Source: Candidatus Omnitrophus sp.
Lineage (GTDB): Bacteria; Omnitrophota; Gorgyraeia; Zapsychrales; Fredricksoniimonadaceae
Assembly: GCA_020719005.1 (NCBI GenBank)
Contig: DYQZ01000004.1
Span: 1-46,125, forward strand
Length of the DNA: 46,125 nt
Reading direction: 5' to 3'
Shown piece after piece: positions 19,362 to 41,648 of the stretch. The position numbers and the translations under genes were made by a program. Below the pieces are notes generated by a model, which ran no database searches, had not been told where the DNA came from, and saw nothing but the letters and a program-made list of their open reading frames with translations. Each line of letters begins with the position of its first letter. Position 1 is the stretch's first letter.

Positions 19362-19385
19362 TTTTCGCGTGAGCGAAGTTTCTAA

Positions 19386-19420
19386 GGGGCATGTCACCAC
19401 GTTGACATGCTCCTTTTTAT
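19386..19420 (+). terminator. Rho-independent terminator after csp
   Basis: GGGGCATGTCA / TGACATGCTCC 11-bp stem (one G-U pair) followed by TTTTTAT. Confidence 0.8.
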
Positions 19421-19459
19421 TTAAACAAGATGACGGACGGTTATAGGGTTTTTGGAAAG

Positions 19460-19569
19460 AGCCATTGGTCGGCACACCCCAATCGCTCAGACAGAAAAAA
19501 CCGTCTTTTCTTTTTGGTTAGGGGTGGACGGTTTTTTAACTCGCGCTTGGGGTATGCCGACCCATGGCT
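19460..19569. other. Long nested inverted repeat (structured RNA or leader candidate) upstream of mntP
   Basis: Outer arms 19460-19482 and 19547-19569 are 21/23 complementary; inner arms AAAAAACCGTC (19495-19505) and GACGGTTTTTT (19527-19537) are perfect. Confidence 0.75.
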
Positions 19570-19599
19570 TATAAAAAGCACAATAGATTGTAAGGTGTT

Positions 19600-20160: not shown

Positions 20161-20861
20161 ATCTTTCCTTCCAGATATTTTTTGTAGAGTGGGCGTGGGA
20201 ATCTTTCGATGGCGTAGCGTAGGAGCGTGCGCGGCATTTGTTGATAGCGCGGCGTAAGATAATCCTTCAGTGCCCGCAGGTCTTTTTTCCCAGCTTCTCT
20301 CAACATCCAGCCAACAGCTTTGTGAATAAGATCTTCATCGTCGGAAAGAAGCATGTCGGCGATACGGAAAGTATCGTGGATGTCGCCTGTGCGGATAAAA
20401 GCAAAAGTGCTGACGATGGCGATACGGCGTTCCCACATATTTGTTGAACGGGCAAGTTGATCGAGCAAAGTGCGGGGTTTATCTTTCAAATGATCCCCGA
20501 GCAGTTTGTGGGCTGAAAGATCGACCAGGTCCCAGTTATTGATGCTGCCTGTGTGTTTCAGATAGAGCGCAATGATCTTTTCTTTTTCCGTTGTTGTGCC
20601 GCACGTGTATTGTTCGATCAGGATAAAAAGGGCAAGGAGCCGTTCTTCATGGATGGGGGATGTTAGAAGGGATGTAACTTCTTTCTTATCAAGAGTATGG
20701 AATGTATGGGCAATGCTACGGATCTCAGGTACTTTTACGCCGATAAAGACATCGCCTTCACCATATTCGCCCGGTCCTGTTTTAAAGAAAGAGGAGAGGA
20801 TACGTGCTTTTTCTGTGCTTGCACAAGCGTGCAGGTGTTTTCGGGCTAGAGACGCTGACAT
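20157..20861 (-). CDS. DNA alkylation repair protein (AlkD-like)
   Basis: FFKTGPGEYGEGD.FIGV.VP, HEERL, INNWDLVD, WERR, DLIHKAVGWMLRE and PRTLLRYAIE. Confidence 0.92.
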   Translation of the reverse strand: MSASLARKHLHACASTEKARILSSFFKTGPGEYGEGDVFIGVKVPEIRSIAHTFHTLDKKEVTSLLTSPIHEERLLALFILIEQYTCGTTTEKEKIIALYLKHTGSINNWDLVDLSAHKLLGDHLKDKPRTLLDQLARSTNMWERRIAIVSTFAFIRTGDIHDTFRIADMLLSDDEDLIHKAVGWMLREAGKKDLRALKDYLTPRYQQMPRTLLRYAIERFPRPLYKKYLEGKI

Positions 20862-20912
20862 GGTGATGCCTTTTAATTAACTCTATTAACTAGTTTATAT
20901 TATAATTTAAAG

Positions 20913-20941
20913 TTGCCATCTTTAACCTCTAGGGGTATCAT
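20913..20941 (+). promoter_or_regulatory. Possible sigma70 promoter for the giant-protein operon
   Basis: TTGCCA (20913-20918), 17 bp, TATCAT (20936-20941) in an AT-rich divergent intergenic region. Confidence 0.45.
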
Positions 20942-21006
20942 AACATAAGTTCATTCTTTAAAAAATCCTCTACTTAACTCCTTGTTAATATCGACGGGAA
21001 AAATGC

Positions 21007-21933
21007 ATGAAAAAGACATTGTTTTTAGTATGCTGCCTTGTGTATGGATGTGTCCTTTTTGTTACCTCCCTTTTTGCCCAGCAAAGTGCTGAGATCATCA
21101 ATATCAATTATAAATATAAGATCGCTTTTGCGGACCTGACCGAGAAAGATGTAAAACCCGGGGATATGGTCACTGTTGGTACATCTAATGGCGAGCAGGT
21201 TTATCTGAAAGTGGTCGAGGCGTATCCGGTCATGGTAAAGCTTATGATCGCGGATGAGCCTGAATATAAACTGACGGAGGAAACGTTCAGTCATATTGTT
21301 GTTGGCGGAAGCGTTGTTGTTGGTAACGCGGGAAAAAAAAGAATGGCAGCGCCTGTTGTGAGCATGCCTTCTGTTAAGGCTGAAGAAAAGACGGTTGATG
21401 AAGATATCGCTCATGTGGAAAGTTATTCACCTTCTTCTCTGCGTGAGACAAAGCCTGTGGAGAGGCCGCTCAAGAATGCCCCGCTTGTGGTGCCGGTGTC
21501 TGTTCCCGTCAAGGAAACGGTTGAAGCTCCTCTTGTTATGGTGCCCGCGGTTGCTGTTTCAAATGATGCTGACGTGTGTAAAAGTCGGTTGGCGACGGTG
21601 GAGAAACGGCTTGATCAGGTCATGAACAACAATGTGTCGTTGTCGGAAAATGTGACCATGCTTTTGGCAGACAAGAATGCGGTTGAGGAAAAAGTGCGGG
21701 TGAAAGAGGCTGAGGCGGTTGTCTTGAAGCAAAAACTCGATGAGGCTCTTCCTGCCCGTAGTGCACTTGAAGGGCAATTAAAAAGCGTCCAGGCGGACCT
21801 TGTGAATGCACGTTCACAAAAAGAGAGCGCGGATAAAGAGATCCAGTCCCTGAACATCAAACTTGTCGAACTTAAGAAAAAACTTGCTCGCATGGTCGAG
21901 ATCATCAACAACAATGTGAAAGTCTATGAATAA
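21007..21933 (+). CDS. Secreted hypothetical protein: N-terminal beta domain, Pro/Val-rich linker, C-terminal coiled coil
   Basis: Signal peptide ending LFA-QQ; heptad pattern over the last ~120 aa; overlaps the next gene by 8 nt. Confidence 0.8.
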   Translation: MKKTLFLVCCLVYGCVLFVTSLFAQQSAEIININYKYKIAFADLTEKDVKPGDMVTVGTSNGEQVYLKVVEAYPVMVKLMIADEPEYKLTEETFSHIVVGGSVVVGNAGKKRMAAPVVSMPSVKAEEKTVDEDIAHVESYSPSSLRETKPVERPLKNAPLVVPVSVPVKETVEAPLVMVPAVAVSNDADVCKSRLATVEKRLDQVMNNNVSLSENVTMLLADKNAVEEKVRVKEAEAVVLKQKLDEALPARSALEGQLKSVQADLVNARSQKESADKEIQSLNIKLVELKKKLARMVEIINNNVKVYE

Positions 21934-24900
21934 AAAATCCATTCTTCCCGGTATTCTTGCAGTTGTTTTTCTGTCATCGAATCTTATGCCGTACGGCGTG
22001 CATGCGGCGCCTCTTGATATGGTGGCGCAGGACGAGCTTTTCTTTGCCCAACAGGAACTGAAGCAGGCAAAGGACAAATTGCTTGCTAAAGAGGCGGAGC
22101 TTTCAAAACTCGTCATGGAAAAAGAAGTGGCGAAAATGAATGCTGAGACAGCGTCTCGAGAAAAGGAACTGCTTCAGGCCAAGATCGACGGCTTGCAAAA
22201 GAATATCGTTGAACGGGACCAGTCTTTGCCTAAACAGATCGAACAATCCATCGGGCCTTTGCAGAGCAGGGCGGATGAATTGAGCCAGGAATTGAAAGTG
22301 TTGCAGTTCTCCCTTGAGCAAAAGAATATCAGGCTTGCTGAAGTGGAAGCTCAAAAGCAGGGCATCGAACTTCAGATGAGAAAGACTGATGATGAGAAAC
22401 TTTTGTTGCGTGATTCGTTAAGAAGGGTCGGCGATGAACTCGACAAGCTTAAGACCAACCTTGCGAAGCGTGTTCAGGAAGAAACAGCTGTTCAGCAGGC
22501 AAAGATCGTTGAACTTGAAAGTAAGGCGTCGGCTCAAAAGACCCTAACGGATGAGAAGATCAAGCAGGCGTCGGTAGTGCTTGAGGACAAGGTCCGCAGT
22601 CTGGATCTGCAACTTAAATCAAAGGATGATGAAGCAAATGCCAAAGTAGCGGCGATCAAAGAGCAATTAGATCAAAAAATAAAGAATTTGGAAGCGGCGT
22701 TGTTGAGTGCAAAGAATGAGACGGCAGGTGCTCTTAAGAATGCGGAAGGCCTTTCCAAAGCAACGATCGAAACATTACGCCAGGAATTAGGCGCCAGGGA
22801 GGCAGATGCCCAGCGTCGCGTTGCTGAGGCTAAGGTGCCGTATGAGGAAAAGATCAAACAGCTGACCTCAAATATTGCGACGGTTAAAGAAGCGGCCCTT
22901 AAAGATGTGCAGGTGATCAAGGGTAAGTATGAGGAAAAAGTGACGGCTCTTCAGGCTGAAATGGGTAAGGCTAAGACAGACGCTGATGTTAAGGTCAAGG
23001 CGGTCAGGGAAGAGTTACAGAAAAAGATCGATGAACTCAACAATAAGATTGAACAGGATAAGACGGACGCCGCGGGTAAATTAGGCGCACAGCGTTTGGA
23101 TTATGATGGAAAATTGGCCCTTGTTAAACAGGAGACGCTCAAAGTCCAGCAGGAATTGTCTTCACGTGAGGGGATGATCGCGTCGTTGAAGCAGGAGAGG
23201 GATGCTCTTTTACTCAAGGGTGAGGATGCAAAAAAGAGCGAGGCTGTGCTTACTGCGAAGATCAGCGGGTTGCAGGATGAAATGGCGGCGCTTAAGAAGA
23301 ATGCCGAACTTCAGGTGCAGGTGGCAAAGAATGATTCAGCGTTGATCGTCGAGAAAATGAAGACAGACGCGCAGTTGGCTCAGGAGAAGATCAAGGCCGA
23401 GGCTGATAAAGCGTTGGCTAATGCGGATGGCAGGGTGGCTAAGATACAAGAAGAGCTCAACGCCTTGCGTATCGTATTGAAAGATAAGGAGACGCAGGCT
23501 CAAGTGGCTGAGAAAGAGCGTGACGCTCTTAGTGCAAAGCTGGCAACGGCGCTCTCTTCAGGTGATGCGCTCCGTAAGAACATGGAAATGGTGCAGGCTG
23601 AATTAAAAACGTTCCAGCAGTCATTGCCTCAAAAGCTTGAGGAAGGAAAAGCTCCTCTGGCAGCTGAGATAGGAATGCTGAAAGCAAAGATCACCGCTCT
23701 TGATGTTGCGGCGCGTGATGCTGATGCCAAAGCACGTTTGGATATTGAGAAGGCGGAAGCCCGGACGGCGGTCGAGGTTGCTAGGATCAAAGAGGAATCG
23801 GCTAAGGCGCTGGCTGTTGTCAAAGACGATGCCTCAAAAGCGTTAGCGTTAGCAAAAAATGATACGGTCGTGGGAGTGAAGGCGGCGAAAGAGGAGGCTG
23901 CTGCGGCTGTGGTCCTTGTCAGGAACGAGAGTGCTGGGGAAATCGCCAGGATCAAGGCGGAAGCTTCACAAATGAAAGATGCGTCTGGCGAAGAGATCCG
24001 TCTTTTAAAAGCCAAGATCGCGGAAGTGCAATCTTCTTTGCCGCGGCTTGTTGAGTTAGAGAAAACACCGTTGCAGGAAAAGATCCGGGTTCTTGAGACG
24101 GAATTACAACAGGCATTGATCGTCGCAGAAAAGACGTCAGGAGAGATAAAGTCAGGGTATGAAACAAAATTGACCGGGTTAAAAAATACCCTTGATCAGC
24201 AAAAAGTGACGTTTGAAGAACAGCTAAGGGCTGTGAAGACGCCTCTTGAGGCAGAGGTGCGTTCTTTACAGCAAAAGCTTGCGGAGATGGATGGGACGCT
24301 AAAGGTGAAAGAAGAAAAGATCGCGGCATTATCGTCTGACCGTGAGGCGCTTTTGAAAGAAAAAGAAAAGACTGCTCTTTCTTTTGCGGGTGAAAAGAAT
24401 GCATTGATGTCGGCGAAAGCAGACCTTGAAGGCTTGATCAAGGCGGCTCAGGATGAGGGTAAACAAAGCGCGCTACGTTTGAAGGAATTGTCTGATCGCA
24501 AGGCCTTTTTGGATGAGGCATTGGCTAAGGCATCGGCAGAACGTGTGAGGTTGACGACGTCGCTTGAGACTGTTCAACAGGAATTGAAGGTGGCTCGGGA
24601 GAGTGTCCCCCTCGAGGTCGCGAAGGCGGCGGATCCGTTAAAGGGAAAAATTGCGGATATTGAGGCAAAGGCAAAAGAAGAAGCGGCGCGGATGCAGATG
24701 AGCATAAGTGATCTTGCAGCGAAAATGAAGGCAATGACCACTGAGCGTGATGCTCTTTTGAAAGAAAAAGAAAAGCTGGTGGTCTTACGCGCGAATATCG
24801 AAGAGGAGCTTAAGACATTAAAGGAGACTGCGACGAAAGAGGTTGAGGCATTGCCACTAAAACTTGCTGAAGCCAGGAAACCGTTGGAAGAAAAGATCGG

Positions 24901-27900
24901 CGCACTTTCACTTAAGACGGTCTCATTGGAGGCGGCTTTAAAAGATAAAGATGCGGCACTGTTGGTCTTGAGCAAAGAACGTGAAGCGTTGACCTGGCAA
25001 CGTGCGACGCTACAGAGCGAGAAAGAAAAGCTTTCACTTGAGGCGGAGCGCAATGTTCAGACATTAAAAATGAAGCTTGATGATCTTCAGGAAGAGGGTG
25101 TTGCAAAGGCTCAGGCGGCGAAGGTTCAATTGGCATCTGTTCAGGAAGATGGCTTGAGGAAGGTAAAGGCGTCGGAAGAGGCGCTGTCCCTCCAGCAGAA
25201 GAATGCTGATGAGCAAATGAGAAAAGTGCAGGCGTCTTTGGATGCGTCGAATGCGCAGTTGAAAAAAGTGCAGGCATCGCTTGAGGCGTCTAACATTGCA
25301 TTGAAAGAAAAACAGGATTCTCTCACCGTGTTGACCGGGGAGCGTAATGTTTTGTCCGCAGAGAAAGTCAAAGCCGTTGAGTTGAAGGCATCGACGGAAG
25401 AGGCGTTAAAGAACGTGAAAGCGGAATTGGCCAAAGAGAATGCATCACTGCCGGAGAAGTTGGCACAAGTTAAAAGACCTCTTGAGGCAGAATTGGCAAA
25501 GGTGAAGGCAGAGTGGATGTCGTTGAATGAAGGGTTGAAGAATAAAGAGGCTCAGTTCAATGTTTTATCCAAAGAGCACGCGGATCTGTTGAATGAAAAA
25601 GAAAAACTTGTTGTTTCAAAAGGTGAACTGGAAGCGGCGCTCAAAGATGTAAAAGGATCTTTAATGGCAGCGGTGGCAGAGATGCCGGGGAAGATCGCGG
25701 AAGCAAAGAAGCCGTTGGAATCAAAGGCTGCCGGGCTTGAACAGGAATTGAGAAAGGTTTCAGCTCAGTTAACGTCAGCGAACGACAAGATCCAGACGCT
25801 GTTATCTCAGCAGACCAAGGTTATGCAGGAGAATGCTGCTCTTCTTGAAGCGCGTAATACGGCTGTGGCGCGTGTGGCGCAGTTAACGATTGATCAAAAA
25901 GACCAGGCTGAGGCATTGCCGGTCAAATTGGCTGAAACCAAACGACCGCTGGAAGAAAAGATACAGGACCTTGAAGAGACGGTGGCTACATCGCAAAAGA
26001 CCATTGCTGAGAAAGAGAACGCGATAAGCGCATTGGATAAAGAAAAAGCTCAGCTTATGAAGGATAAGGATTCTTTGGGTGCGGCTGTGCGAGGGGCGAA
26101 TGAAAAGATAGCGTTGTTGCAGGCTGATATCGCGCGCGCGCGTCAGGACATTGATAGCAAGAAGGCGGAAAATGCGGCGCTGTTAAAGGAACGCGACGGG
26201 CTGGAAAATGAGAAAGCCGCGACGCTGAAAGAGACAGCGGCATTTAAGAAAGAGTTTTTGGCGTTGCAGGGGCGTGCTGAAAAGATAGCGCAGGCATTTG
26301 AAGAGAAAGAAAAGGCCCTTGGCGCGACGATCAAAGAGAGAGATGGGCTTTTAAAAGATAAAGTATCTTTGGAGGCGTTACGTTCATCACTTGAAGGTCA
26401 GCTTAAGGAATCACGGGAGAAATTTGCTTCTGAAGCAGATGCTCTTCCTGAGAAATTATTAAAAGCCCAGGAACCGATCGCTTTGCAGGTTAAAGAGGCT
26501 GAGGCAAAATACACGACGGCAAGTGAAGCGTTGAAGAATAAGTCGGACGAAGCTAAGAGCCTTCAGATAAGGCTTGAAGAGATGACCAAGAAAGCGGCGA
26601 GCCTTGATAATGAACGTGCCAAATTGACGCAGGCATTGTCGGCGCTGCAGCAGGAAAAGGAAACATTGAATGCATCGATCCCGGGGCGGGTCGCGAGCGT
26701 TGAGGTGCCGCTGAAAGAAAAAGTGGAAGCGTTGCAGAAACAGCTTTCTGACATGAACAGTGCCTATAAGTCTTCTGAGACGGAAAAAGGGCGTATCTTG
26801 ACCCAGCTGGGGGCGGTCATGAAAGAGCGCGATACGTTGAACGTTGCTGTGGCTGATCTAAGCGGGCAGTTAACACAATTTAAAGGCCAGCTTGTTGAAA
26901 CACGCGAGGCCTTAAAGACAAATGAAACGCTCCTTCCGGAGAAACTTGCCTCGGCGCAGGCGGAAGCGTTAAGACCTGTCACGGATGAACTCGCGGGGGT
27001 GAAGGCCAAGTTGACGGATGTTTCAGCCCAGCTCGTGGTTAAGGCAAAAACTGTGGAAGATCTTTCAGCTGAGCGCGAGGCGCTTAAGAAACAGATCGAA
27101 GGCGTGAACGCAAGATACGGCAAGCTGGAAATGCTTCTTAAGACGCGCATGGATGAGATGCAAAAGGTGATCGGCGAAAAAGATGCCGCATTGACTAAGT
27201 TGAAAGAAGATTCTCAGGCGCGTTGGGAAAGTCGTGAGGTCGAGGTCGCAGGAGTTGCAAAGGCTAAGGATGCGTTGTTGAAAGAAAAAGAGCAGGCCTT
27301 GTCGGTCTTGGGGAAAGAGGCACAGGCGCTTAAGACGCAGTTGGATCAGGTCATTAAAGAAAAAGAAAACGCGGTTGTTGATATCCAACAGTTGAGCAGT
27401 GATAAAGCTGCGCTTGAAAAGAGTATTCCGCTCAAGGTGTCTGAGGCTCTGCGCCCTCTTGAGGCAAAAACAGCACAGATCGTCGCTGAACTTGATAAGA
27501 ATGCGGCGCTATTGGCGTCAAAAGAAAAAGAACTTTCAGCGTTGAACGGTGCGCAGGCGGCACTTCAAAAAGAATTTAAAGGGGCTCAAGAAGAGATAGC
27601 AGGGCTTTCTTTGTCATTGACGCGCGCAGGAGAAACAGCGTCAGTGACGGGTGCAAGACTTCAGGATGCTAAGAAAGAATTGAATGATCTTACGAAAGAA
27701 AAGGATGCGTTAGTAAAGAATATTGGGCAGTTGTTGGATGAGAAGAAAGGCTTGGAAGAGGCTTTAATGGCGTCGAGAAGAGAGGCGGAAAGTCTTCAGG
27801 CATCGATCCCGGAACGTCTTTCGCAGGTACAGACACCGCTCAACGTTAAATTGAGTGCGCTAGAGAAAACAACCCTTGAAAAGGACCAGGTGATCAAAGG

Positions 27901-30900
27901 GTTGGAGGCTGATCTTTCTGCGGTTGGCCAGGAATTGGCGCTTGTTAAGAAAGAATATGCGACGCTGACGGCGGAGAAAATGAAAGCGGATGCGGGAAAT
28001 CAAACGTTGGCCAAAGAACTGCAGGCGCTTAAGGGATCCATACCACAGCAGTTGGCTTCCGTCGAGAAGCCGTTGACAGTGAAGATCGCGGATGCAGAAG
28101 AGCGCGCACGCGGGATGCAGGAGATGTTGTCCCGGAAAGAGGCACTGATCAAAGATGCCGGGGCGCGGCAGGCGGCACTCTTGAAGGAAATGAATGAAGT
28201 TAAACAAGCAAAGAGTGATCTTGAGGTGTTGTTGGCGAAAGAAAGGACGGATCATGAGGCATTTGTCGCCGGTGTGCCGCAACAACTGTTGTCTGTTGAG
28301 ACGCCGCTTAAGAATGAAGTCATGCTTTTGCAGAAGAAGCTCGCAGACAATGCGTCCTTGATACATCAAAAAGAAGAAGTGTATGCCCGGCTTACAACAG
28401 AGCGGGATGGTCTTCTTAAAGATAAGAATGCGGCAGTGGAAGAAGTCAAACGTTTGTCGTTGTTGGTTGATCGTTCCAGGGAAGAGCAGAGTGCGATATC
28501 GACGGCGCTTGTGAATGCACAAAAGGCGCTCAATGATGAAAAGACTGCATTGCCTTTGCGTCTTTCGCAATTGAAAGCACAGACAGAAGCGCCATTGAAT
28601 GCCAGGCTTGCTGAATTGGATTCAACAGAAAAGGCGTTAAATGCGGCATTAAGTGAGAAGCAAAAGAATATTGTTCAGTTGTTGAGTGAGAAAGATCGTT
28701 TGTCGGCACAGTTAAAAGAAGAACAGGGTCGCGCGGCGCAGTTGAGCGGTGCGTTGGATGTCTCCAGAGCAGAAGCATCGCGTCTTAAAGAGGCTTTGCC
28801 TAAAGAGATCGAAGAAGCGCGTAGTAAAGCGCGTGATGAAGCGACACGTCCGCTTCAGGCAGAGGTGGCCCGTCTTAATACGTCACTGGTCGATCAGAAG
28901 AAGACCTTGGACCTTACGAATGAGCAGTTGAGGATCAAGGCTGAGAATGAAAAAACCGCGCTTCAGGCCCGTATCAGTGATGCGGAAAAGAGCATTCAGA
29001 CCAAAGATGAGGCCTTAAAAGCATTGGCTGTATCAAAGGACAAACTTGATGTGCAGCTTAAGGAAGCGCTGGCACAGCGTCAGCGTCAAGAAGAGGCGGC
29101 GCTGAAGGCTCAAGCACTGTTCACTGAAAGATTAAAGGCTGCTGAAACGGCTCTTGTTGAGGTCCAGAAGAAAGCAGAACTTCAACTTGGTCAGGCTCAG
29201 GAATCCGGTCGTGCTGAATTGACGAATGTGAAGGCGGCCGCGCAAAATGCACAGGCGTCTTTGTCAGGAAAGGTCACGGAACTTAGCGAGAAGATAAAGG
29301 AACAGAATAGCGTTATCAAAGAGAGAGAAGACCGGTTAACGGCACTTGATCGTCAGAGAACGGGTCTGCAGCAAGAACTAAAAACATCTCAAGACCGCGT
29401 TATTTCTCTTGAGGCGGATCTTAAGTCCGTCGGGGAGAAGCTTTCTTCTGCTGAAAAGAGTATCCCACAGCGTCTTTCCGCGCTGCGTGTTGAAGTGGCG
29501 CAGCCGTTAGAGGCAGAGATGGCCGCGTTAAAAGCAAAGACAGCTGGCGATCTGACGGCGCTTCAGGTTAAAGCGGGCGAGGATGTTAAACGCGCACAGG
29601 CACAAACAGCAGAAGTGAAAGCCTCTCTTGAGAAAGCATTGGCAGATGCCGGAGCGCGCGTGTCAGCGCTTGATCAGCAGGTTTCTGACAGGCAGGCGCA
29701 GGTCGTTCTTTTGACCAAAGAGAAAGAAGAAGTAACGCGTTCATTGGCGGGCGAACGCGCAGGTTATGCCAAACTGACAAAAGAGCATCAGGATCTCATC
29801 GAGAAAATGAAGATCGTCGAGGCCAGCGTGCCTCAAAAGATCGAGCAGTCGGTCATGGCGTCTGTTGCGGCGGCGCGTGAGCCGTTACAGAATAAGATCG
29901 CTGAATTAGAGAAGAGAACGTCTGCGATGTCAGATGCGATCGGCCAGAAAGATGTGGAATTGTCCCGTCGTGCCGAAGCATTGGCGAAGTTGGTCAAAGA
30001 ACGTGATCTGACGTCAAATGAATTGAACAGTGTTAAGGCCGAAAAGGGAAAGATCCTCGCGGATCTCATGCGCACTGAGGCGGATCTTAAGGCGACCGCC
30101 AGTGCTCTTCCAGAAAAGCTGGCAGCGGTCCGCATGGACGCAACGAAACCTCTTGAGGCGGAACTGGCAAAGACAAAACAAAAAGCGGATGAGGATGTGA
30201 AGGCTGCAATGGCTGATGCCCTTTCTAAGGTCAACGACGAGAAAGCTCGCCGTGAGGCGGAGCAGAGAACGCTGCAGGAAAAGATGGGCGTGCTTAATAA
30301 AGAACTCCTAAATGCCCAGAATGCAATGCTTGGCGTGAAGACAAGCCTTGAGGGAATAAGTCAGCAGCGGAATTCTTTGGTGAATGAAGTTGCAGCTCTA
30401 AAGAAGGAAAATACTGTATTGGCCCGGACGCTTGATGAGGTCCGCTCGGAGGGCCTTAAGGAAAAAGAAGCGGGCGGTGTGCGTATCGCGAACTTAGAGG
30501 CGCAGATGAAGGCAAAGACCGACGATCTTATGAAGCAGGTTGAGGAGCGTATTCGTCAGGCCGAGAATAAGGTTGTCGAAATGCGTCAACAGGCTGAAGA
30601 TCGTTTGGCCATGGCAAAGGCGGAAAATCAGCGTGCCGTGGAAACAGTAAGTGCAGAAGCTGTGAAGACCCGTCAGGAAGCTGAAGGGAAATTAGCGCAG
30701 TTCAATAAAGAGGCGGGGCAGAAAGAAAAAGCATTGCAGGATGAACTTTCGGCATTACGTCAGTCGCTCGACGTTCGTGTTAAAGCGCTCTCAGATGAGC
30801 TAAAGACAGGTGAGAATTCTTTTCTTGCAATGAAGCAGGAACGTGATGCGTTGTCGTTGCGTCTGAAAGAAGAACAGGCGGCTTCTTTAAAATTGAATGT

Positions 30901-33900
30901 TTCATTGAATGACGCGAAGAATGAATTGGCGCGTGTACAACAGGCGATTCCCGCCCAGGTCGCTACTGCAGTTGCGGCTGTTCGCGCTCCTCTTCAGACG
31001 GAGAATAGTACACTCAAGGATGCTTTAACGAAAGCAAAAGAGGAGCTTGCGGTAAAGCTTGAAGAGCTTAAAGACCTGAATGCTGAATTTGATGGGGTCA
31101 AGGAAGCGTTGGTCGCTTCGGAAAAAGAACGAGTGATCAGAGAGAAGCAGGGGGTCATGCTGACAGCTAAATTGTCATCGCTTAGCACCTCGATCCCTGA
31201 TCAGGTTGCATCAGCCAGAGAGCCTGTTCTTAAGGAGTTAAATACACTCAAAGAAAAGATCGTAGAGCAGACGGCGGATATGACAGAGAAACAGCGTCTT
31301 ATCGACGTACTTAGTGCGGATAAGGCGATGCTTTTAAAACAGGCGGAAGACCTGCGTCTTAAGCAGTCTGGCATGGGCCAGGAATTGCTCAGCACGCGCA
31401 CGGCGTTGAAAGCGCAGGAAGAAGATGTTGTTGTGAAGATGGCGCTTGCCAAGAAGCCTTTGGAAGAAGCACTTATTCAGGCGAAGAAAGATCAGGATAA
31501 GCTGCGTGCAGAGATAGGTTTGACCGCCGATCAGCTTCGGGCCAAGATGGCGGCACTTGATCAGTTGAATACGTCGTTGGTTGGTTTGACCAAAGAGCGT
31601 GATCTGTTGATTACTGAAAAGATGCAGTTGAATGCTCAGCTTGAGCAAATAAAGCTTAAAGCGGCCGTTGATGAAAAGAGCGCGATCGAGCGTTTGGCAC
31701 AAGCTGAGACTAATGTGCGCCAGCCCCTGGAAGCTCAAGTGGTAAAGGTCCGGAATGAGATGAGTGCCGAGATAAAAGCGCTTGAAGAAAAGAGTGGGAA
31801 AGAAGCGGAGGCGTTGCAAGCTAAGATCTCGTCGTTGGACATGGCGGCAAAGGACCTTTCAGGTCGCCTCGCGGAAAAAGAAGCGGTATTAAAAAGTTTA
31901 AGCGAGGAAAAACAGAACCTTTCTATGGGACTTGCTTCTCAGGAAAAAGCAAAGGCCTCTCTTGAAGGGAACATTGCGGCGTTAAAAAAGGAAATGGAGG
32001 CGGTGAATGCTTCTGTTGCGGAGCGTGTGGTGAAGGCCAAAGAGCCTTTGGAAAAGCATATCAAGGACCTTGAGAATCAGTTACGTGCAAGTGAGATCCT
32101 CGCCGGATCAAAGCTCAATCAGATGCAGGTCCCTCTTAAGGACAGGATCAGTTTTCTTGAAAATGAAGTTAAAACCGCGCAGGACCTGTATCAACAACAG
32201 GAAAAAATGGTAAAAGAAATGGTCGCTAAGCGCGATGAGCTCCTTAAGAACCTTGGTGAGGTCGAGCGTGACCGTCAGTCGCTTAAAGTTCAGGTCACGG
32301 GTCTGACGAATAAATTAACTGAAAGTGAGAGCGCGCTTCCTGTACGTTTAGCTCAGGCCAAGGCTCCGTCGGAGGCTAAGACCGTTGAACTGGAAAGTCA
32401 GGTCGAGAAATTGACCGCGGCACTTAAAGAAGCACTGGAAAATAAGGACAAGATGGCAGCGGAGTCGCTGAAAGAAGCGCAGGCTTTGCGTCAATCACTT
32501 GATCAGGCGGTGCGTGAGAAGACGTCTGTTGGTAATGAGCTCTCTGTTCTTAAGGCTACAGCAGAGGGGCTGTCGGTGTCCTCTGAGGAAAGAGCTCGAA
32601 GTGTAGAAGAGTTGCGTCAGAAGAATTTTGAACTGACACGTGAGCTTTCAGCGCTTCAGGGGAACAAGGCTTCGTTGGATAAGAAATTCCAGCAGACGGA
32701 TGCGGAGCTTAAAAATTTCCAGGGTTCCATCAGCAAGCGTATTGAAGAAGCCCGTCAGCCTTTGGAAGATACGCTGCGGTCTCTCGAGAAAAATTTGTTC
32801 GAGAAAGATACAGCTCTCAAGGATAAAGATGCCGAGATCATGCGCCTGACCAAAGAGCGCAATAATTTCGTTGGCAAGTTTTCTCAGGCGGAAGAACAAG
32901 GGAAGACATCATTAAGCAAAATGGCTCAGCTTGAAAGCCAGCAGGCAGCATTTGACCAGAAGATGAATGAGACCATTGCTCAGACCAGGGGGCCTCTTGA
33001 AAAACAGATCACGGACCTGACGCTTCGTTTGTCGTCGTTACAAGCTGAGCGCAAGGCGGAGACTGATGGCGTATCTGTCAAGTTGGCTGCTACGAATGCC
33101 GGTTGGGAAAAGCAGATGGCGGCTCTGAAGGCCGAGATGGAACGCATGACGGCAGCTTCCCGTTCTTCGTCGGAAGCGTTAAAGGTTTCTTATGAAGAGA
33201 AGATCGCACAGCTTAATATGCGTCTTAATGAATTGAAGGCCGATCTGGATGGCCGTGTTAAAACAGCGTCGGATGCGAGATCGGCGCAAGATGCACAGCG
33301 GGCGGCATTAAATGCGCTCAAGGAAGAGAAAGCAAAGATGTCGGCGGAGATCCTTCAATTGCGCGAGGCATTAAAAGTGAAAGAAGCTGATATGACGCTT
33401 AAGGTTTCTTCACTTAGCGCTTCCCGTCAGGATGAGATAAAAGCGGTTGAGGAAAAATGGGGCGCTTCAAAAGCAGAGATCGAAAAGACAGCGCAGGCGC
33501 TGAAGGCGCAGTTGAATGCGCAGTCTCTTGAGTTCACGCGGCAAATGCAGGCCAAAGAAATGATCCTCAAGGAGAAAGAATTGGCCGTATCTCAGATGCA
33601 GTTCAGGATCGAAGGGCTGGAGAAAGATCTTGATATGATGAAACAGGACAAGACATCTCTTGATGAAGAGAAGGCCCGTATGGAACAAACCCTCAAGGAG
33701 TCAAAGGCGGGTTCGATCGAATCCCGTCGTGTTGAGATCGACGCGGCTAAGGCACCATTGCTTGAGCAGTCGCGTCAACTTCAAAAGACGGTTGAATTGA
33801 AGGAGGAGGAGATCAAGGCTCAAAAGGCGCGCGAATCTGTTTTGATCCAGACCCGTGAAAAAATGAACGGCGAGTTCGTTCTGTTGAAGGATCAGCTGGG

Positions 33901-34285
33901 CAAACTCGAGGCACAATATGCCGAGGCCATGGCCTTATTGTCTAATGTGCAAGGGGCGGGACGCACAAACCTTGATGAGGCGCGTAAAGAATTAGAGGGG
34001 AAGATCGTCCAGATCCAGGCAGAGTCAGCACCTCTTAAAGCTCAAATAATGGAGAGGGACGCATCGATCAAAGCATTGAAAGCCTCATTAGAAGCATCAG
34101 TGAAAGAGAAAGATGTTATGAATGCCGAGGCTTTAAGGCTGAAAGAGAAAACCGCGGCATTGGAAACAGAATTGAGGTCTAAAGATAAAGCGTTCACAGC
34201 CCTTCGTCAGCAAGTTGATACGAAACAGCAGGACCTGAAGGCTGTTCAGGATGAATTGAACGGAGCGATGGAACTGGTCAAGTAG
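21926..34285 (+). CDS. Giant (4119 aa) secreted segmented coiled-coil protein of unknown function
   Basis: Uninterrupted 12.36-kb ORF; signal peptide (MNKK..hydrophobic..VHA-A); K/E/A/L/Q-rich heptads throughout; about 30 copies of an (S/A)(L/I)PxK(L/V)...PLxxK(I/L)-like motif; no globular or ATPase domain recognised. Confidence 0.9.
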   Translation: MNKKSILPGILAVVFLSSNLMPYGVHAAPLDMVAQDELFFAQQELKQAKDKLLAKEAELSKLVMEKEVAKMNAETASREKELLQAKIDGLQKNIVERDQSLPKQIEQSIGPLQSRADELSQELKVLQFSLEQKNIRLAEVEAQKQGIELQMRKTDDEKLLLRDSLRRVGDELDKLKTNLAKRVQEETAVQQAKIVELESKASAQKTLTDEKIKQASVVLEDKVRSLDLQLKSKDDEANAKVAAIKEQLDQKIKNLEAALLSAKNETAGALKNAEGLSKATIETLRQELGAREADAQRRVAEAKVPYEEKIKQLTSNIATVKEAALKDVQVIKGKYEEKVTALQAEMGKAKTDADVKVKAVREELQKKIDELNNKIEQDKTDAAGKLGAQRLDYDGKLALVKQETLKVQQELSSREGMIASLKQERDALLLKGEDAKKSEAVLTAKISGLQDEMAALKKNAELQVQVAKNDSALIVEKMKTDAQLAQEKIKAEADKALANADGRVAKIQEELNALRIVLKDKETQAQVAEKERDALSAKLATALSSGDALRKNMEMVQAELKTFQQSLPQKLEEGKAPLAAEIGMLKAKITALDVAARDADAKARLDIEKAEARTAVEVARIKEESAKALAVVKDDASKALALAKNDTVVGVKAAKEEAAAAVVLVRNESAGEIARIKAEASQMKDASGEEIRLLKAKIAEVQSSLPRLVELEKTPLQEKIRVLETELQQALIVAEKTSGEIKSGYETKLTGLKNTLDQQKVTFEEQLRAVKTPLEAEVRSLQQKLAEMDGTLKVKEEKIAALSSDREALLKEKEKTALSFAGEKNALMSAKADLEGLIKAAQDEGKQSALRLKELSDRKAFLDEALAKASAERVRLTTSLETVQQELKVARESVPLEVAKAADPLKGKIADIEAKAKEEAARMQMSISDLAAKMKAMTTERDALLKEKEKLVVLRANIEEELKTLKETATKEVEALPLKLAEARKPLEEKIGALSLKTVSLEAALKDKDAALLVLSKEREALTWQRATLQSEKEKLSLEAERNVQTLKMKLDDLQEEGVAKAQAAKVQLASVQEDGLRKVKASEEALSLQQKNADEQMRKVQASLDASNAQLKKVQASLEASNIALKEKQDSLTVLTGERNVLSAEKVKAVELKASTEEALKNVKAELAKENASLPEKLAQVKRPLEAELAKVKAEWMSLNEGLKNKEAQFNVLSKEHADLLNEKEKLVVSKGELEAALKDVKGSLMAAVAEMPGKIAEAKKPLESKAAGLEQELRKVSAQLTSANDKIQTLLSQQTKVMQENAALLEARNTAVARVAQLTIDQKDQAEALPVKLAETKRPLEEKIQDLEETVATSQKTIAEKENAISALDKEKAQLMKDKDSLGAAVRGANEKIALLQADIARARQDIDSKKAENAALLKERDGLENEKAATLKETAAFKKEFLALQGRAEKIAQAFEEKEKALGATIKERDGLLKDKVSLEALRSSLEGQLKESREKFASEADALPEKLLKAQEPIALQVKEAEAKYTTASEALKNKSDEAKSLQIRLEEMTKKAASLDNERAKLTQALSALQQEKETLNASIPGRVASVEVPLKEKVEALQKQLSDMNSAYKSSETEKGRILTQLGAVMKERDTLNVAVADLSGQLTQFKGQLVETREALKTNETLLPEKLASAQAEALRPVTDELAGVKAKLTDVSAQLVVKAKTVEDLSAEREALKKQIEGVNARYGKLEMLLKTRMDEMQKVIGEKDAALTKLKEDSQARWESREVEVAGVAKAKDALLKEKEQALSVLGKEAQALKTQLDQVIKEKENAVVDIQQLSSDKAALEKSIPLKVSEALRPLEAKTAQIVAELDKNAALLASKEKELSALNGAQAALQKEFKGAQEEIAGLSLSLTRAGETASVTGARLQDAKKELNDLTKEKDALVKNIGQLLDEKKGLEEALMASRREAESLQASIPERLSQVQTPLNVKLSALEKTTLEKDQVIKGLEADLSAVGQELALVKKEYATLTAEKMKADAGNQTLAKELQALKGSIPQQLASVEKPLTVKIADAEERARGMQEMLSRKEALIKDAGARQAALLKEMNEVKQAKSDLEVLLAKERTDHEAFVAGVPQQLLSVETPLKNEVMLLQKKLADNASLIHQKEEVYARLTTERDGLLKDKNAAVEEVKRLSLLVDRSREEQSAISTALVNAQKALNDEKTALPLRLSQLKAQTEAPLNARLAELDSTEKALNAALSEKQKNIVQLLSEKDRLSAQLKEEQGRAAQLSGALDVSRAEASRLKEALPKEIEEARSKARDEATRPLQAEVARLNTSLVDQKKTLDLTNEQLRIKAENEKTALQARISDAEKSIQTKDEALKALAVSKDKLDVQLKEALAQRQRQEEAALKAQALFTERLKAAETALVEVQKKAELQLGQAQESGRAELTNVKAAAQNAQASLSGKVTELSEKIKEQNSVIKEREDRLTALDRQRTGLQQELKTSQDRVISLEADLKSVGEKLSSAEKSIPQRLSALRVEVAQPLEAEMAALKAKTAGDLTALQVKAGEDVKRAQAQTAEVKASLEKALADAGARVSALDQQVSDRQAQVVLLTKEKEEVTRSLAGERAGYAKLTKEHQDLIEKMKIVEASVPQKIEQSVMASVAAAREPLQNKIAELEKRTSAMSDAIGQKDVELSRRAEALAKLVKERDLTSNELNSVKAEKGKILADLMRTEADLKATASALPEKLAAVRMDATKPLEAELAKTKQKADEDVKAAMADALSKVNDEKARREAEQRTLQEKMGVLNKELLNAQNAMLGVKTSLEGISQQRNSLVNEVAALKKENTVLARTLDEVRSEGLKEKEAGGVRIANLEAQMKAKTDDLMKQVEERIRQAENKVVEMRQQAEDRLAMAKAENQRAVETVSAEAVKTRQEAEGKLAQFNKEAGQKEKALQDELSALRQSLDVRVKALSDELKTGENSFLAMKQERDALSLRLKEEQAASLKLNVSLNDAKNELARVQQAIPAQVATAVAAVRAPLQTENSTLKDALTKAKEELAVKLEELKDLNAEFDGVKEALVASEKERVIREKQGVMLTAKLSSLSTSIPDQVASAREPVLKELNTLKEKIVEQTADMTEKQRLIDVLSADKAMLLKQAEDLRLKQSGMGQELLSTRTALKAQEEDVVVKMALAKKPLEEALIQAKKDQDKLRAEIGLTADQLRAKMAALDQLNTSLVGLTKERDLLITEKMQLNAQLEQIKLKAAVDEKSAIERLAQAETNVRQPLEAQVVKVRNEMSAEIKALEEKSGKEAEALQAKISSLDMAAKDLSGRLAEKEAVLKSLSEEKQNLSMGLASQEKAKASLEGNIAALKKEMEAVNASVAERVVKAKEPLEKHIKDLENQLRASEILAGSKLNQMQVPLKDRISFLENEVKTAQDLYQQQEKMVKEMVAKRDELLKNLGEVERDRQSLKVQVTGLTNKLTESESALPVRLAQAKAPSEAKTVELESQVEKLTAALKEALENKDKMAAESLKEAQALRQSLDQAVREKTSVGNELSVLKATAEGLSVSSEERARSVEELRQKNFELTRELSALQGNKASLDKKFQQTDAELKNFQGSISKRIEEARQPLEDTLRSLEKNLFEKDTALKDKDAEIMRLTKERNNFVGKFSQAEEQGKTSLSKMAQLESQQAAFDQKMNETIAQTRGPLEKQITDLTLRLSSLQAERKAETDGVSVKLAATNAGWEKQMAALKAEMERMTAASRSSSEALKVSYEEKIAQLNMRLNELKADLDGRVKTASDARSAQDAQRAALNALKEEKAKMSAEILQLREALKVKEADMTLKVSSLSASRQDEIKAVEEKWGASKAEIEKTAQALKAQLNAQSLEFTRQMQAKEMILKEKELAVSQMQFRIEGLEKDLDMMKQDKTSLDEEKARMEQTLKESKAGSIESRRVEIDAAKAPLLEQSRQLQKTVELKEEEIKAQKARESVLIQTREKMNGEFVLLKDQLGKLEAQYAEAMALLSNVQGAGRTNLDEARKELEGKIVQIQAESAPLKAQIMERDASIKALKASLEASVKEKDVMNAEALRLKEKTAALETELRSKDKAFTALRQQVDTKQQDLKAVQDELNGAMELVK
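23777..23974 (+). repeat. Six 11-residue (hendecad) repeats in the giant protein
   Basis: VARIKEESAKA / LAVVKDDASKA / LALAKNDTVVG / VKAAKEEAAAA / VVLVRNESAGE / IARIKAEASQM. Confidence 0.7.
25223..25306 (+). repeat. Tandem 42-nt (two-heptad) duplication in the giant gene
   Basis: KVQASLDASNAQLK / KVQASLEASNIALK; both units begin aaagtgcaggc. Confidence 0.8.
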
Positions 34286-34353
34286 AAAAAATAGGGACAT
34301 GATGACTTTTCTAACATAAATAATAAGAAAAGTCATCGTGTCCCTACTTTTTT
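34286..34353. repeat. Long inverted repeat right after the giant gene (bidirectional terminator or REP/MITE-like)
   Basis: AAAAAATAGGGACATGATGACTTTTCT (34286-34312) pairs almost perfectly with AGAAAAGTCATCGTGTCCCTACTTTTTT (34326-34353). Confidence 0.8.
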
Positions 34354-34473
34354 CGTGCCCCTCTTTCTTTATATAAGATAAGTATTTTATACTTCTATTC
34401 TTGACTATTTATTTATCAGCGTCAAAATAAAACTGTTGGTGTTACGTCCGATAATTAACAGGAGCCTAGACGC

Positions 34474-35544
34474 ATGATCGCAGCCTATCACCATCTTTGG
34501 GGCACTGTACTTCTTTTTCGGGATCCTTTCTTTCTTGCTATGTTTTTTGTTGTTGTTTTAACGCCTCTGATGATCGTTCTTGCGCATCGTTTTAATATCC
34601 TGGATCATCCGAATGAACGTAAACTACACTCTAAGCCTGTGCCGCGTTTGGGGGGGCTGGGGATCCTGATCGCTTTTTGGATGGCCGCTTTATTTCATTT
34701 GCCCTGGAGCAATGAATTCACTTCTATTCTGATCGGCGGTTCGATCATTGCGATCATGGGGATCGTTGATGATATTCGCGGCCTTTCTTCCGTGGTGCGT
34801 CTTGGTGGACAGCTTCTGGCATCTATCATTGTGATGTCGTCGGGGCTTATTGTTTCTTTTATGCCGCATACGCTTTTGGGAACGCTCATCGCATGGCTGA
34901 TCACACTCCTTTGGATCATCGGGATCATCAATGCCTTGAATTTTATGGATGGCCTGGACGGCCTGGCTTCCGGCATGACCATGATCGCAGCCTTCTTTTT
35001 CTTTTTAATGGCAGTTTATTTACGTCAGCTTGATGTGGCGCTCTTGGGTGCTGTTCTGATGGGGAGTGCAGCGGGATTTTTGTTCTATAATTTTAAACCG
35101 GCAAAAATATATCTTGGGGATGGCGGAAGCACTTTCTTTGGTTTTATGCTGGCGTGCCTGGCACTGTACGGCGGATGGTCGAATGACGGTTTCATTGTAG
35201 CACTGGGGGTTCCGACCATTATCCTGGGGGTGCTGGTGTTTGATATGATCTATATCACGATCTCGCGTATCAAGAATGGTGAGGTGAAGACATTCCGTCA
35301 GTGGCTTGATCATACGGGCAGGGATCATTTTCATCATCGTTTATTAAGCCTGGGGTTCTCTGAAGTAGGGGCCGTGCTGTTCATTTATCTGGTGTGTTTT
35401 ATCCTGGGGCTTAACGTGTTGGTGCTTGAGCGTTTGCGTAATCCATTGGGAGTTGGTATCCAGTTCTTCAATGCCATGCTTATTTTCCTGCTCATCTTAT
35501 CCTTGATGCGGACAGGGAGGGCGTTCCTTAGTAAGAAGAAATAG
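34474..35544 (+). CDS. wecA: MraY/WecA-family undecaprenyl-phosphate GlcNAc-1-P transferase
   Basis: DHPNERKLH..PVPRLGG, GIVDD, NALNFMDGLDGLA, YNFKPAKIYLGDGGS and DHFHHRL; many TM helices. Confidence 0.9.
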   Translation: MIAAYHHLWGTVLLFRDPFFLAMFFVVVLTPLMIVLAHRFNILDHPNERKLHSKPVPRLGGLGILIAFWMAALFHLPWSNEFTSILIGGSIIAIMGIVDDIRGLSSVVRLGGQLLASIIVMSSGLIVSFMPHTLLGTLIAWLITLLWIIGIINALNFMDGLDGLASGMTMIAAFFFFLMAVYLRQLDVALLGAVLMGSAAGFLFYNFKPAKIYLGDGGSTFFGFMLACLALYGGWSNDGFIVALGVPTIILGVLVFDMIYITISRIKNGEVKTFRQWLDHTGRDHFHHRLLSLGFSEVGAVLFIYLVCFILGLNVLVLERLRNPLGVGIQFFNAMLIFLLILSLMRTGRAFLSKKK

Positions 35545-35551
35545 GAGTGTT

Positions 35552-36637: not shown

Positions 36638-36641
36638 AGGC

Positions 36642-38581: not shown

Positions 38582-38585
38582 GGAT

Positions 38586-41647: not shown

Positions 41648-41648
41648 C

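Follow-up and report, generated by a model that had tools for sequence, protein, structure and literature searches.

A predicted giant coiled-coil protein and its small barrel-bearing partner: a conserved gene pair beside polysaccharide-export genes in Omnitrophota

The window analysed here is a 46,125-nucleotide (nt) stretch of Candidatus Omnitrophus sp. (GenBank assembly GCA_020719005.1, contig DYQZ01000004.1, our contig C51), from an assembly of 1.44 Mb in 89 contigs that is 85.5% complete. It carries a small gene and a giant gene that, as judged by comparison with related genomes, form a conserved and translationally coupled unit, standing at the head of a Wza/Wzc-type polysaccharide-export cluster. 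Both frames are open, as claimed by a first-pass annotation made from the letters of this stretch without database searches, and they share an 8-nt overlap, ATGAATAA.

21007-21933, + strand: small partner gene P0001, open frame of 308 amino acids (aa)
21926-34285, + strand: giant gene P0002, open frame of 4119 aa, all-helical judging from composition and periodicity

The giant gene is the second largest open frame of the assembly and takes up 0.86% of the assembled DNA. The stretch 20500-34800 is covered, with zero differences, by contigs built independently from two public runs, which are labelled biofilm metagenome and soil metagenome and may be the source samples. One independently built contig contains all of 20500-30530, including the first 8.6 kb of the giant frame, and three spots in the last 3.8 kb of the frame (~30508-30530, 32296-32310 and 32953-32978) have no single bridging contig. 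DNA-level repeats within the gene are short stretches of 60-90% identity; neither tandem arrays nor long near-identical DNA repeats were found in it. Because the repeats are short and diverged, collapse of the gene is unlikely, and misassembly, which the first-pass annotation had named as a way for its reading to fail, is likewise unlikely overall, with less certainty over the last 3.8 kb. That we are dealing with an assembly artefact, or with a non-functional open frame within a repeat-rich region, is a very remote prospect: the three unbridged spots speak for it, and against it stand the single contig over the first 8.6 kb, free of differences in two runs, the lack of long near-identical repeats, and complete orthologous frames (1687-5653 aa) elsewhere, which share both the partner gene and the conserved N- and C-termini.

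The giant protein has three landmarks to which the following paragraphs refer.

21926-22006, + strand: signal-peptide-like N-terminus, aa 1-27; basic n-region, then a hydrophobic stretch, and V-H-A just ahead of residue 28
25415-26134, + strand: run of three 78-aa modules, aa 1164-1403, used for structure prediction (unit hidden Markov model, HMM; AlphaFold2)
34235-34282, + strand: acidic C-terminal motif, last 16 aa, conserved in an alignment of 11 C-termini

The composition includes 14.7% A, 13.3% L, 12.3% E, 12.1% K and 7.0% Q, with 1.4% proline and no cysteine. The N-terminus reads as a signal peptide that would be cleaved, in Sec fashion, after V-H-A; such N-termini are seen on both proteins in all relatives examined, in agreement with the earlier claim for the giant one. 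Signal-peptide and coiled-coil calls were made throughout from Kyte-Doolittle windows, periodicity and reading of the sequence rather than with a dedicated predictor. No 19-residue window of the giant protein reaches a Kyte-Doolittle value of 1.6, the maximum past residue 40 being 1.26, and by this measure neither a transmembrane (TM) segment nor a hydrophobic stretch follows the N-terminus. The protein has no Walker A motif (G-x4-G-K-[ST]) anywhere, no LPXTG motif (pattern LP.[TSA]G) and, with 0 cysteines, no lipobox, so that the SMC head, TM segment and lipobox reported missing at first pass are indeed missing. A strong match to a characterised family had been named there as grounds for dropping the idea of a new structure; Pfam and NCBIfam gave no family at or above cut-off for either protein, and PHROGs gave 0 families for the small protein and both halves of the giant one. 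The NCBIfam SMC model TIGR02168 scores 154.7 bits on the giant protein against a cut-off of 567.35, on coil stretches only. In Pfam, neither SMC_N nor any anchor or beta-barrel family, such as would mark a trimeric autotransporter or another barrel-anchored adhesin, matches it at E <= 0.1, the C-terminal 130 aa aligning as helix-type sequence, and no match to Wzz or GNVR was found. Searches in which only candidates sharing most words were scored found only the protein itself for residues 1-400 against proteins of 2265-7209 aa, and nothing at E <= 1e-3 for residues 3800-4119 against shorter proteins; the best Protein Atlas value for the first 2000 aa was 0.84, under the lead level of 0.9.

The giant protein appears to consist of about 50 modules of roughly 78 residues each, punctuated by pairs of prolines. 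Pairing accounts for 42 of its 59 prolines: the mature chain has 21 such pairs, usually at a distance of 9 residues, within the motif S-[IL]-P-x-K-L-x5-P-L-E-x-K; a 22nd match to the pattern falls inside the signal peptide. A unit HMM made from 11 modules detects 29 significant modules, 20 of them full length, and 6 of the 19 intervals from one start to the next measure exactly 78 residues. Self-identity of the chain is highest at lag 78, and spacings of 78 and its multiples (156, 234, 312, 390) recur in the relatives. The hydrophobic period is 3.558 with a power of 7.56, while the maximum power in 100 shuffles was 0.88 +/- 0.22 and never exceeded 1.59. This power grows with the window: it is 0.64 at 56 residues and reaches 7.56 over the full chain, and the hydrophobic seam therefore holds partial phase across thousands of residues. 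In well-registered windows, which comprise 3161 of the 4119 residues, positions a and d are occupied by L/I/V/A and position g by E/K (a = L37 I13, d = L40, g = E26 K12; the choice of register is partly circular). The hallmarks of a canonical left-handed coiled coil, namely a heptad seam, hydrophobic a/d and charged e/g positions, are all found in the giant protein.

Structure prediction covered residues 1164-1403, using an alignment of nine module triplets; for the remainder of the chain helicity is deduced from composition and periodicity, and the earlier description of a protein helical from end to end holds as a predicted fold for this piece and as an expectation for the rest. The best AlphaFold2 model has a predicted local distance difference test score (pLDDT) of 89.2 and a predicted template-modelling score (pTM) of 0.55, and contains helices 2-89 and 94-239, interrupted within the second motif at M-P-G-K (aa 1253-1256); the remaining four models score from 79.7 to 65.9. 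It aligns with the PI3K p85 iSH2 hairpin (root-mean-square deviation, rmsd, 2.0-2.2 Å over 141-148 residues), the YscO hairpin (2.4 Å over 159 residues), the SMC and Smc5/6 arms (Z 13-13.5), and LipC and EnvC (Z 12-13.5 when taken together with the SMC arms), and its antiparallel hairpin geometry was deduced from these structures. A PDB sequence profile of the three modules returned generic coiled coils only (myosin, keratin, SlaB and others). With the textbook rise of 0.1485 nm per residue, the mature chain would measure ~607 nm if fully extended. The ~600 nm given in the first-pass annotation is thus kept as an upper bound, because the best three-module model is an antiparallel hairpin, and the fibre may be far shorter.

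The hairpin raises the possibility of a compact architecture, in which the modules fold back at the proline-pair junctions to give a palisade or tube ~11 nm tall and no rod at all, comparable to SMC arms, the hairpins of membrane-fusion proteins and the periplasmic helices of Wzc. This concerns architecture and would fit any of the functions considered below. The turn at M-P-G-K in the best-scoring model and the match of that model to the antiparallel hairpins, SMC arms, LipC and EnvC point in this direction, as do the strict 78-residue spacing and its multiples in relatives, which would suit length-matched arms, and the alternation of A and B module types in two relatives. However, the other four models score lower; only one of the three junctions in the folded piece turns, the glycine-bearing one, and glycine is found nearby in only 4 of the 21 motif copies of the mature protein. 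Numerous spacings differ from 78 (82, 85, 92, 127, 164, 176, 199 and others), and the partial phase coherence of the hydrophobic period along the whole chain also argues for a continuous rod. Fold-back is commonly predicted for monomer pieces of true dimeric coiled coils, and since only the glycine-containing junction turns, the hairpin may be an artefact of monomer prediction. We regard the compact architecture as somewhat unlikely and as a live alternative. In either case, the 78-residue proline-pair module offers a clean object for structural work on coiled coils, whether it proves to act as a hinge, a hairpin or an element of staggered assembly.

The small partner was modelled with AlphaFold2 on a 17-sequence alignment (overall pLDDT 75.3), and the model has a beta-domain, a linker and a helix, in line with the beta-domain/linker/coiled-coil layout that had been claimed for it.

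21007-21078, + strand: signal-peptide-like N-terminus, aa 1-24 (AlphaFold2 helix 2-24; Kyte-Doolittle segment 1-26, maximum 2.55)
21085-21321, + strand: six-stranded beta-barrel, aa 27-105, pLDDT about 90 (AlphaFold2)
21331-21561, + strand: disordered Pro/Val/Ala-rich linker of ~75 aa, aa 109-185, pLDDT <50
21565-21927, + strand: single long helix of ~120 aa, aa 187-307, pLDDT 94-97, with a basic C-terminal end

The N-terminus is expected to end in a signal-peptide cleavage site. Cys 9, 10 and 15 lie within its hydrophobic core, with no canonical lipobox context around them as judged by eye. The barrel is the most conserved part of the family and contains an invariant E-I-I-N motif, whereas the linker varies in length among homologues and its alignment columns are gappy and unconserved. 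Structural alignment with VIA-align gives Z 10.5-9.6 to the N-terminal barrels of the FliI, V1 and F1 ATPases and Z 10.1 to FlgT 8z5n (rmsd 2.5 over 82 residues), with an rmsd of 1.9-2.6 Å over 69-82 residues for the ATPase and FlgT rows, FliI excepted; the top Foldseek match is FlgT 3w1e (E 2.3e-3). The modelled barrel can therefore be said to resemble FlgT and the F1-ATPase crown at the level of the fold, without family membership. What is shared with FlgT of the Vibrio flagellar H-ring and with the F1/V1/FliI crowns is the fold of one barrel (Z about 10), a type of barrel that sits in rings. Unlike FlgT, the small protein has a single barrel, no FlgT match in Pfam and no flagellar genes nearby; with the FlgT_N/FlgT_M/FlgT_C architecture and the flagellar context both missing, assignment to the FlgT family was rejected. 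A PDB sequence profile of the barrel had as its top match designed double-psi barrels, with E 0.0073 and an aligned length of 27 residues, and the best Protein Atlas value was 0.79, again under the 0.9 lead level.

The two proteins have C-termini of opposite character. The helix of the small protein ends in a conserved L-K-K-K-L-x-R-M, with a net charge of +3 to +7 in 9 of 11 homologues. The extreme C-terminus of the giant protein follows the pattern L-x2-[VI]-x2-E-[LI]-x2-A-x-E-L in all 11 sequences compared; in that alignment E121 and L128 are invariant and A125 nearly so, and the net charge is -1 to -6 in 8 of the 11. Since one end is basic and the other acidic, their composition suggests that they could pair. 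Complex prediction with the C-terminal 125 aa of the small protein and the C-terminal 130 aa of the giant one, run without controls, gave 0.16 and 0.01 against a mark of 0.32, which counts neither for nor against binding, and the BLASTP match between the small-protein helix and the giant C-terminus (E 0.007) is not meaningful.

The pair is conserved among relatives of this genome. Among the 29 loci from relatives in which the small gene was detected, 25 have, next to it and in the same orientation, an A/E/L/K/Q-rich (51-62%) gene downstream with a signal-peptide-like start. The junction ranges from an overlap to a 40-nt gap and is mostly an overlap of 4-14 nt. Two of the other four loci stop at a contig end without a neighbouring open reading frame (ORF), one has no listed ORF, and one (L024) is different. 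Homologues of the small protein are 34-75% identical. A profile of the barrel domain matches 144 cluster representatives at E <= 1e-3 among 1.84 billion, and 128 of the matches reach E <= 1e-10. Almost without exception these proteins have 170-340 aa, and their domain, at about residues 25-115, comes immediately behind the signal peptide; on these matches the family appears small and uniform. A profile search of the repeat with comparison of neighbourhoods had been proposed in the first-pass annotation; here a search with the small-protein N-domain found it in 33 genomes out of 168 in the order, the great majority from families f1 and f9, and the pair lies nearly always beside a Wza/Wzc cluster. 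Of 401 genomes sampled across the whole phylum, 13 gave a strong match, and each of these belongs to family f1 or f9. A further 13 weaker phylum-wide matches are partial, and the five examined show the opposite domain order.

Complete, uninterrupted giant proteins measure 1687, 3140, 3426, 3913, 4119, 5134 and 5653 aa, counting only frames with a terminal stop codon and no X run; several others are interrupted by N runs or contig ends. Their N-termini are conserved within subgroups. The rod is merely about 22-33% identical among relatives, and in one relative 15 of the last 20 residues are identical, yet the rod is only 32-33% so. From these alignments the ends of the giant protein appear conserved while the length of the rod drifts widely between species.

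Several observations concern more distant or differently labelled relatives. The proteins of opposite domain order come from other Omnitrophota families (L037:70-840, L042:16066-16830, L038, L039, L040); they are ~255-430 aa long and have an N-terminal TM segment or signal, a coiled coil and then a C-terminal barrel related to the N-domain of the small protein, with sub-threshold FlgT_C matches (up to 24.7 bits vs a cut-off of 27). Those of L037 and L042 lie directly upstream of murA-mreB-mreC-mreD-pbp2-rodA-like genes, named by order and lengths. Two of seven public contigs with a close relative of the barrel (L051 and L052, 57-58% identity) are titled 'Candidatus Elulimicrobium sp.' and 'uncultured Planctomycetales bacterium'; these non-Omnitrophota titles look like differences of labelling or binning. 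Within the order there are also other long coiled-coil genes with signal peptides, at L056:4573-10871 (-), 1917 aa, L058:3220-10279 (+), about 2390 aa, and L059:1250-5341 (-), 1363 aa. They have no barrel-type partner and are distant from polysaccharide genes; in L056 a different secreted protein, of 175 aa, is encoded 17 nt ahead of the coiled-coil gene.

Two sets of candidate signals flank the pair.

20877-20941, + strand: two sigma-70-like promoter matches 5' of the small gene, 10/12 matches each; weak evidence
34285-34360, + strand: terminator-like hairpin directly 3' of the giant-gene stop, with an A-run before and a U-run after

Sigma-70-like sites are no commoner in the region than in shuffles (11 found vs 10.2 expected). 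The hairpin has a 28-bp stem and a folding energy of -38.3 kcal/mol (z -10.85), which 0 of 200 shuffles equalled; a consensus terminator scan overlooked it, its loop being longer than 8 nt. An Rfam scan of 18000-36000 gave no match. Because this strong hairpin, with its A-run and U-run, closes the giant gene, the pair is probably a transcription unit of its own.

Downstream of the hairpin, on the same strand, lie the genes of the export cluster.

34474-35544, + strand: glycosyl transferase family 4 (GT4), initiating transferase type (Pfam PF00953, E 2.3e-37)
35552-36637, + strand: membrane protein P0015, no known family; N-terminal TM segment, outer domain of ~130 aa, second TM segment and disordered tail (topology judged by eye from the sequence)
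36561-37466, + strand: ExeA/GspA-like P-loop ATPase, PEP-CTERM-system type (AAA_22, E 4.5e-24)
37454-38581, + strand: HD-GYP-type domain protein, likely cyclic di-GMP (c-di-GMP) phosphodiesterase (HD_5, E 2.9e-21)
38565-39416, + strand: Wza-like polysaccharide export protein (Poly_export and SLBB domains)
39416-41647, + strand: Wzc-like co-polymerase with a P-loop kinase domain (Wzz, GNVR and AAA_31 domains)
41583-45890, + strand: Wzy_C (O-antigen ligase-like) protein, ABC-2 permease, Wzt-type ABC ATPase and methyltransferase (domain scan)

The position at the head of this Wza/Wzc cluster, the terminator-like hairpin and the large variation in length among orthologues are new relative to the first-pass annotation. 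A Wzc-like or other polysaccharide co-polymerase (PCP) gene lies within 1-6 genes 3' of the giant gene in 10 of the 12 loci with downstream sequence, the window included. GT4 orthologues are found in the loci of six relatives (L015, L017, L019, L022, L023 and L055), and P0015 homologues follow the giant gene in seven; in L023 the retrieved sequence shows the GT4 gene, a P0015-like gene and the ATPase before it runs out. Certain f9 and f1 genomes have no more of the cluster than a P0015-like and a PCP-like gene, or just the latter, and this remnant is still adjacent. Orthologues of the cluster ATPase (>=65% identity) occur in 17 of the 168 genomes of the order, and 16 of these 17 also have the small protein; the other genomes have only ATPase paralogues of <=45% identity. 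The counts of synteny and co-occurrence come from related genomes and do not constitute a statistical test. The ATPase scores 212.7 bits against TIGR03015, the PEP-CTERM-system ATPase model, below its cut-off of 324.5. Its listed GTG start at 36561 overlaps the preceding gene by 77 nt, and the true start is probably 36642, since relatives align from residue 1 when it is begun there.

The first-pass annotation had suggested an undescribed envelope structure, such as a periplasmic cytoskeleton, a tether or a molecular ruler, with the small protein as its cap or anchor. An undescribed envelope or extracellular structure is a fair reading, because no characterised family was matched, the pair is conserved and coupled, and the N-termini resemble signal peptides; it could take any of the three forms, and the small protein may be a cap or anchor. 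The explanation that we favour, tentatively, is that the pair builds an exported fibrous scaffold or spacer working with a polysaccharide coat or matrix. It is proposed because the pair heads, and co-occurs with, a Wza/Wzc-type export cluster that contains a c-di-GMP phosphodiesterase. Both structural proteins would cross the inner membrane by Sec. The giant protein would serve as a cysteine-free fibrous coiled coil with short conserved ends and the rod as a spacer, and the small protein as an adaptor composed of a ring-forming type of barrel, a flexible Pro-rich spacer and a 120-residue helix, the basic end of which could dock on the acidic end of its partner. Placed in the envelope or outside the cell, such a scaffold would arrange the polysaccharide coat or biofilm matrix of these very small cells or hold it in place, and would be tied genetically to an export machine under c-di-GMP control. 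The label of one of the two runs with this DNA, biofilm, fits this explanation, the other being a soil metagenome. Five secretin-family genes above the Pfam cut-off are present in the 1.44-Mb genome (contigs C81, C9, C50, C15 and C79), and outer-membrane export routes therefore exist.

Several points weigh against a coat or matrix scaffold. The link to polysaccharide is one of guilt by association among related genomes that are not independent, and the strong terminator-like hairpin stands between the pair and the cluster. One relative (L057) has the giant gene followed by unrelated genes, with no cluster downstream, and another (G122) has the orthologous cluster without the pair, two secreted PEP-CTERM proteins (L055:3813-4568 and 5524-6312) occupying the slot upstream of GT4. 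Pfam and NCBIfam revealed neither a carbohydrate-binding nor an anchoring domain in the giant protein or its partner; no outer-membrane export signal is recognisable, so the giant protein and its partner may remain periplasmic; and the best three-module model is a fold-back hairpin rather than a rod. That the proteins in this slot are of the PEP-CTERM class, which is tied to exopolysaccharide systems, speaks in turn for the scaffold. Exosortase was not found in the window's genome (85.5% complete) or in G010 and is present in G032, G152, G153 and G122 (two matches in the last); because it occurs in some genomes and not in others, it has no consistent tie to the pair.

A scaffold confined to the periplasm would make a different structure. 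Both proteins would then lie between the membranes as a cytoskeleton or belt, the rod running round the cell circumference to stiffen or shape the envelope and the barrel and Pro-rich linker of the small protein tying it to peptidoglycan or to a membrane complex, with the export cluster a mere neighbour. The sole visible signal is of Sec type, and neither an anchor nor outer-membrane targeting can be recognised; linkers rich in Pro, Val and Ala are a typical trait of proteins that span the periplasm, and FlgT, the nearest fold, is a periplasmic ring component. The distant barrel relatives next to murA-mreBCD-pbp2-rodA in other Omnitrophota and the terminator, which points to an independent transcript, would also agree with a belt, and an extended length of 250-840 nm is of the same order as the circumference of a cell of 0.2-0.3 µm, the size given in the part of the source available to us (PMC10066038). 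However, the linkage to the export cluster is tight and resists rearrangement, and the two co-occur; a threefold variation in length among relatives would be odd for a shape-determining element, and Pfam found no peptidoglycan-binding domain. We consider the belt unlikely.

A long surface tether or adhesin, with an N-terminal head binding host or prey cells and the C-terminus anchored at the cell together with the small protein, is a doubtful proposition. Conserved ends on a variable rod would suit a spacer that presents a tip, and the five secretins could serve its export; most Omnitrophota are ultra-small, and it has been proposed that their giant ORFs provide adhesins (PMC10066038, as far as the text available goes). 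Neither end, however, has an adhesion, lectin or enzymatic domain in Pfam or NCBIfam, the N-terminal 'head' is itself a helical coil, and the neighbours are polysaccharide rather than pilus genes. The pair is moreover limited to two families of one order, while a host-dependent lifestyle has been proposed, in the text available, for the phylum as a whole (PMC10066038).

The conserved ends and variable rod, together with the adjacent chain-length determinant, also prompt the idea of a ruler or tape measure, which we rate as decidedly improbable. Its ends would dock, through the small barrel protein, on the Wza/Wzc machine and on the outer edge of the coat. A rod of species-specific length (about 250-840 nm if extended) might then determine how thick the coat or how long the polymer becomes, a similarly improbable role, and the protein could be viewed, with no greater confidence, as a macroscopic counterpart of the chain-length determinant encoded next door. 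Helical proteins that set length or spacing include phage tape-measure proteins, the YscP/FliK rulers and Braun lipoprotein Lpp. The giant protein is like them in being helical, with conserved ends and a middle that varies in length between lineages; unlike them it shows no sequence relation (0 PHROG families) and no lipobox. Phage tape-measure membership was rejected for lack of PHROG families and of phage genes nearby, and an Lpp-like lipoprotein because the giant protein has no cysteine and the small one no canonical lipobox context.

Judged on sequence and fold comparisons, the pair belongs to no described family, and the known kind to which it can be assigned is that of long structural proteins of bacteria built as coiled coils. 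A parallel to the coat scaffold that we favour is offered by matrix proteins whose genes lie within exopolysaccharide loci: Vibrio rbm genes lie between vps clusters, and PEP-CTERM proteins beside EpsH-type clusters. Like these, the pair would be structural and exported, and it stands beside Wza/Wzc-type export genes and a c-di-GMP enzyme; unlike them, it has no sequence or fold relation to either group, no PEP-CTERM signal and no exosortase found in the 85.5%-complete genome at hand. PEP-CTERM sorting of the giant protein was rejected, its C-terminus being an acidic amphipathic helix without a TM segment, in contrast with the true PEP-CTERM ends seen in L055. A role of the giant protein as a polysaccharide co-polymerase of Wzz/Wzc type was rejected as well (no TM segment, no Wzz or GNVR); the neighbour at 39416-41647 qualifies.

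Coiled-coil stalks that hold a surface layer at a distance are known from the streptococcal M proteins, Thermotoga Omp-alpha and Sulfolobus SlaB. These are 10-20 times shorter than the giant protein and have defined anchors (LPXTG, TM segment or beta-barrel). The giant protein shares with them a fibrous coiled coil and probable export, and no LPXTG or TM anchor was found in it; SlaB 8qox is among the weak matches both in structure alignment of the barrel and in the three-module PDB profile. Classification as an LPXTG fibrillar surface protein was rejected (no LP.[TSA]G, no hydrophobic segment past residue 40). With the arms of SMC and Rad50 the giant protein has in common long heptad-based helices, the alignment of the hairpin model (Z 13.5 and 13.0) and the sub-threshold NCBIfam SMC match. 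It differs in having no ATPase head, Walker A or hinge, and a signal peptide in place of a cytoplasmic location; SMC/Rad50 membership was rejected on the missing Walker A and SMC_N and on the signal-peptide-like N-termini of the window and the relatives listed.

Omnitrophota are uncultured, with cells mostly ~0.2 µm in size (PMC10066038), and their giant proteins are being actively studied. In the parts of these sources available to us, the giants described ('archaeovorin'- and 'dockerin'-type, from ORFs >20 kb; 10.1101/2023.11.21.568195, 10.64898/2026.06.07.730766) are membrane-threaded, multi-domain proteins, mostly of >10-20 thousand aa, with many TM helices, beta-helix tubes, SecA-like and peptidase domains and carbohydrate-binding modules (also PMC10066038). 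The 4119-aa protein shares with them the phylum, an unusual length, probable export and a scarcity of annotated domains. It is shorter (4.1 thousand aa), all-helical and equipped with a signal peptide only and a dedicated small partner; with no TM segment past the signal peptide and no domains, it was not placed in the described class, as far as that class is defined in the available text. The word 'coiled' has 0 occurrences in the text at hand of either preprint (10.1101/2023.11.21.568195, 10.64898/2026.06.07.730766), and no secreted, all-helical coiled-coil giant with a partner was found in the accessible Omnitrophota literature, the supplementary tables of which might list relatives. A catalogue of 916 proteins has a 'signal peptide only' class of 79, which could include relatives (10.64898/2026.06.07.730766, from the part available).

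The proteins described here would thus represent a different class: bearing only a signal peptide, cysteine-free, helical, 1.7-5.7 thousand aa long, with a partner of their own and a fixed place by polysaccharide-export genes. If extended, the giant protein would be two to three times longer than the cell is wide, implying an envelope or coat architecture so far unseen in bacteria. Even the shortest orthologue, if extended, would match the cell width of ~0.2 µm reported in the available text (PMC10066038).

Two further observations were made in the window and its genome. At 13382-14470 of the window lies a DNA photolyase-like gene, beside an anaerobic ribonucleotide reductase gene, NrdD (15594-17723), which is flanked by two radical-SAM genes (14719-15522 and 17639-18391). 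The largest open frame of the assembly, of 20,296 aa, starts at about 16826 on the + strand of contig C79, which also carries one of the secretin genes (C79:5508-6017); together with the 4119-aa gene it makes up about 5% of the 1.44-Mb assembly.

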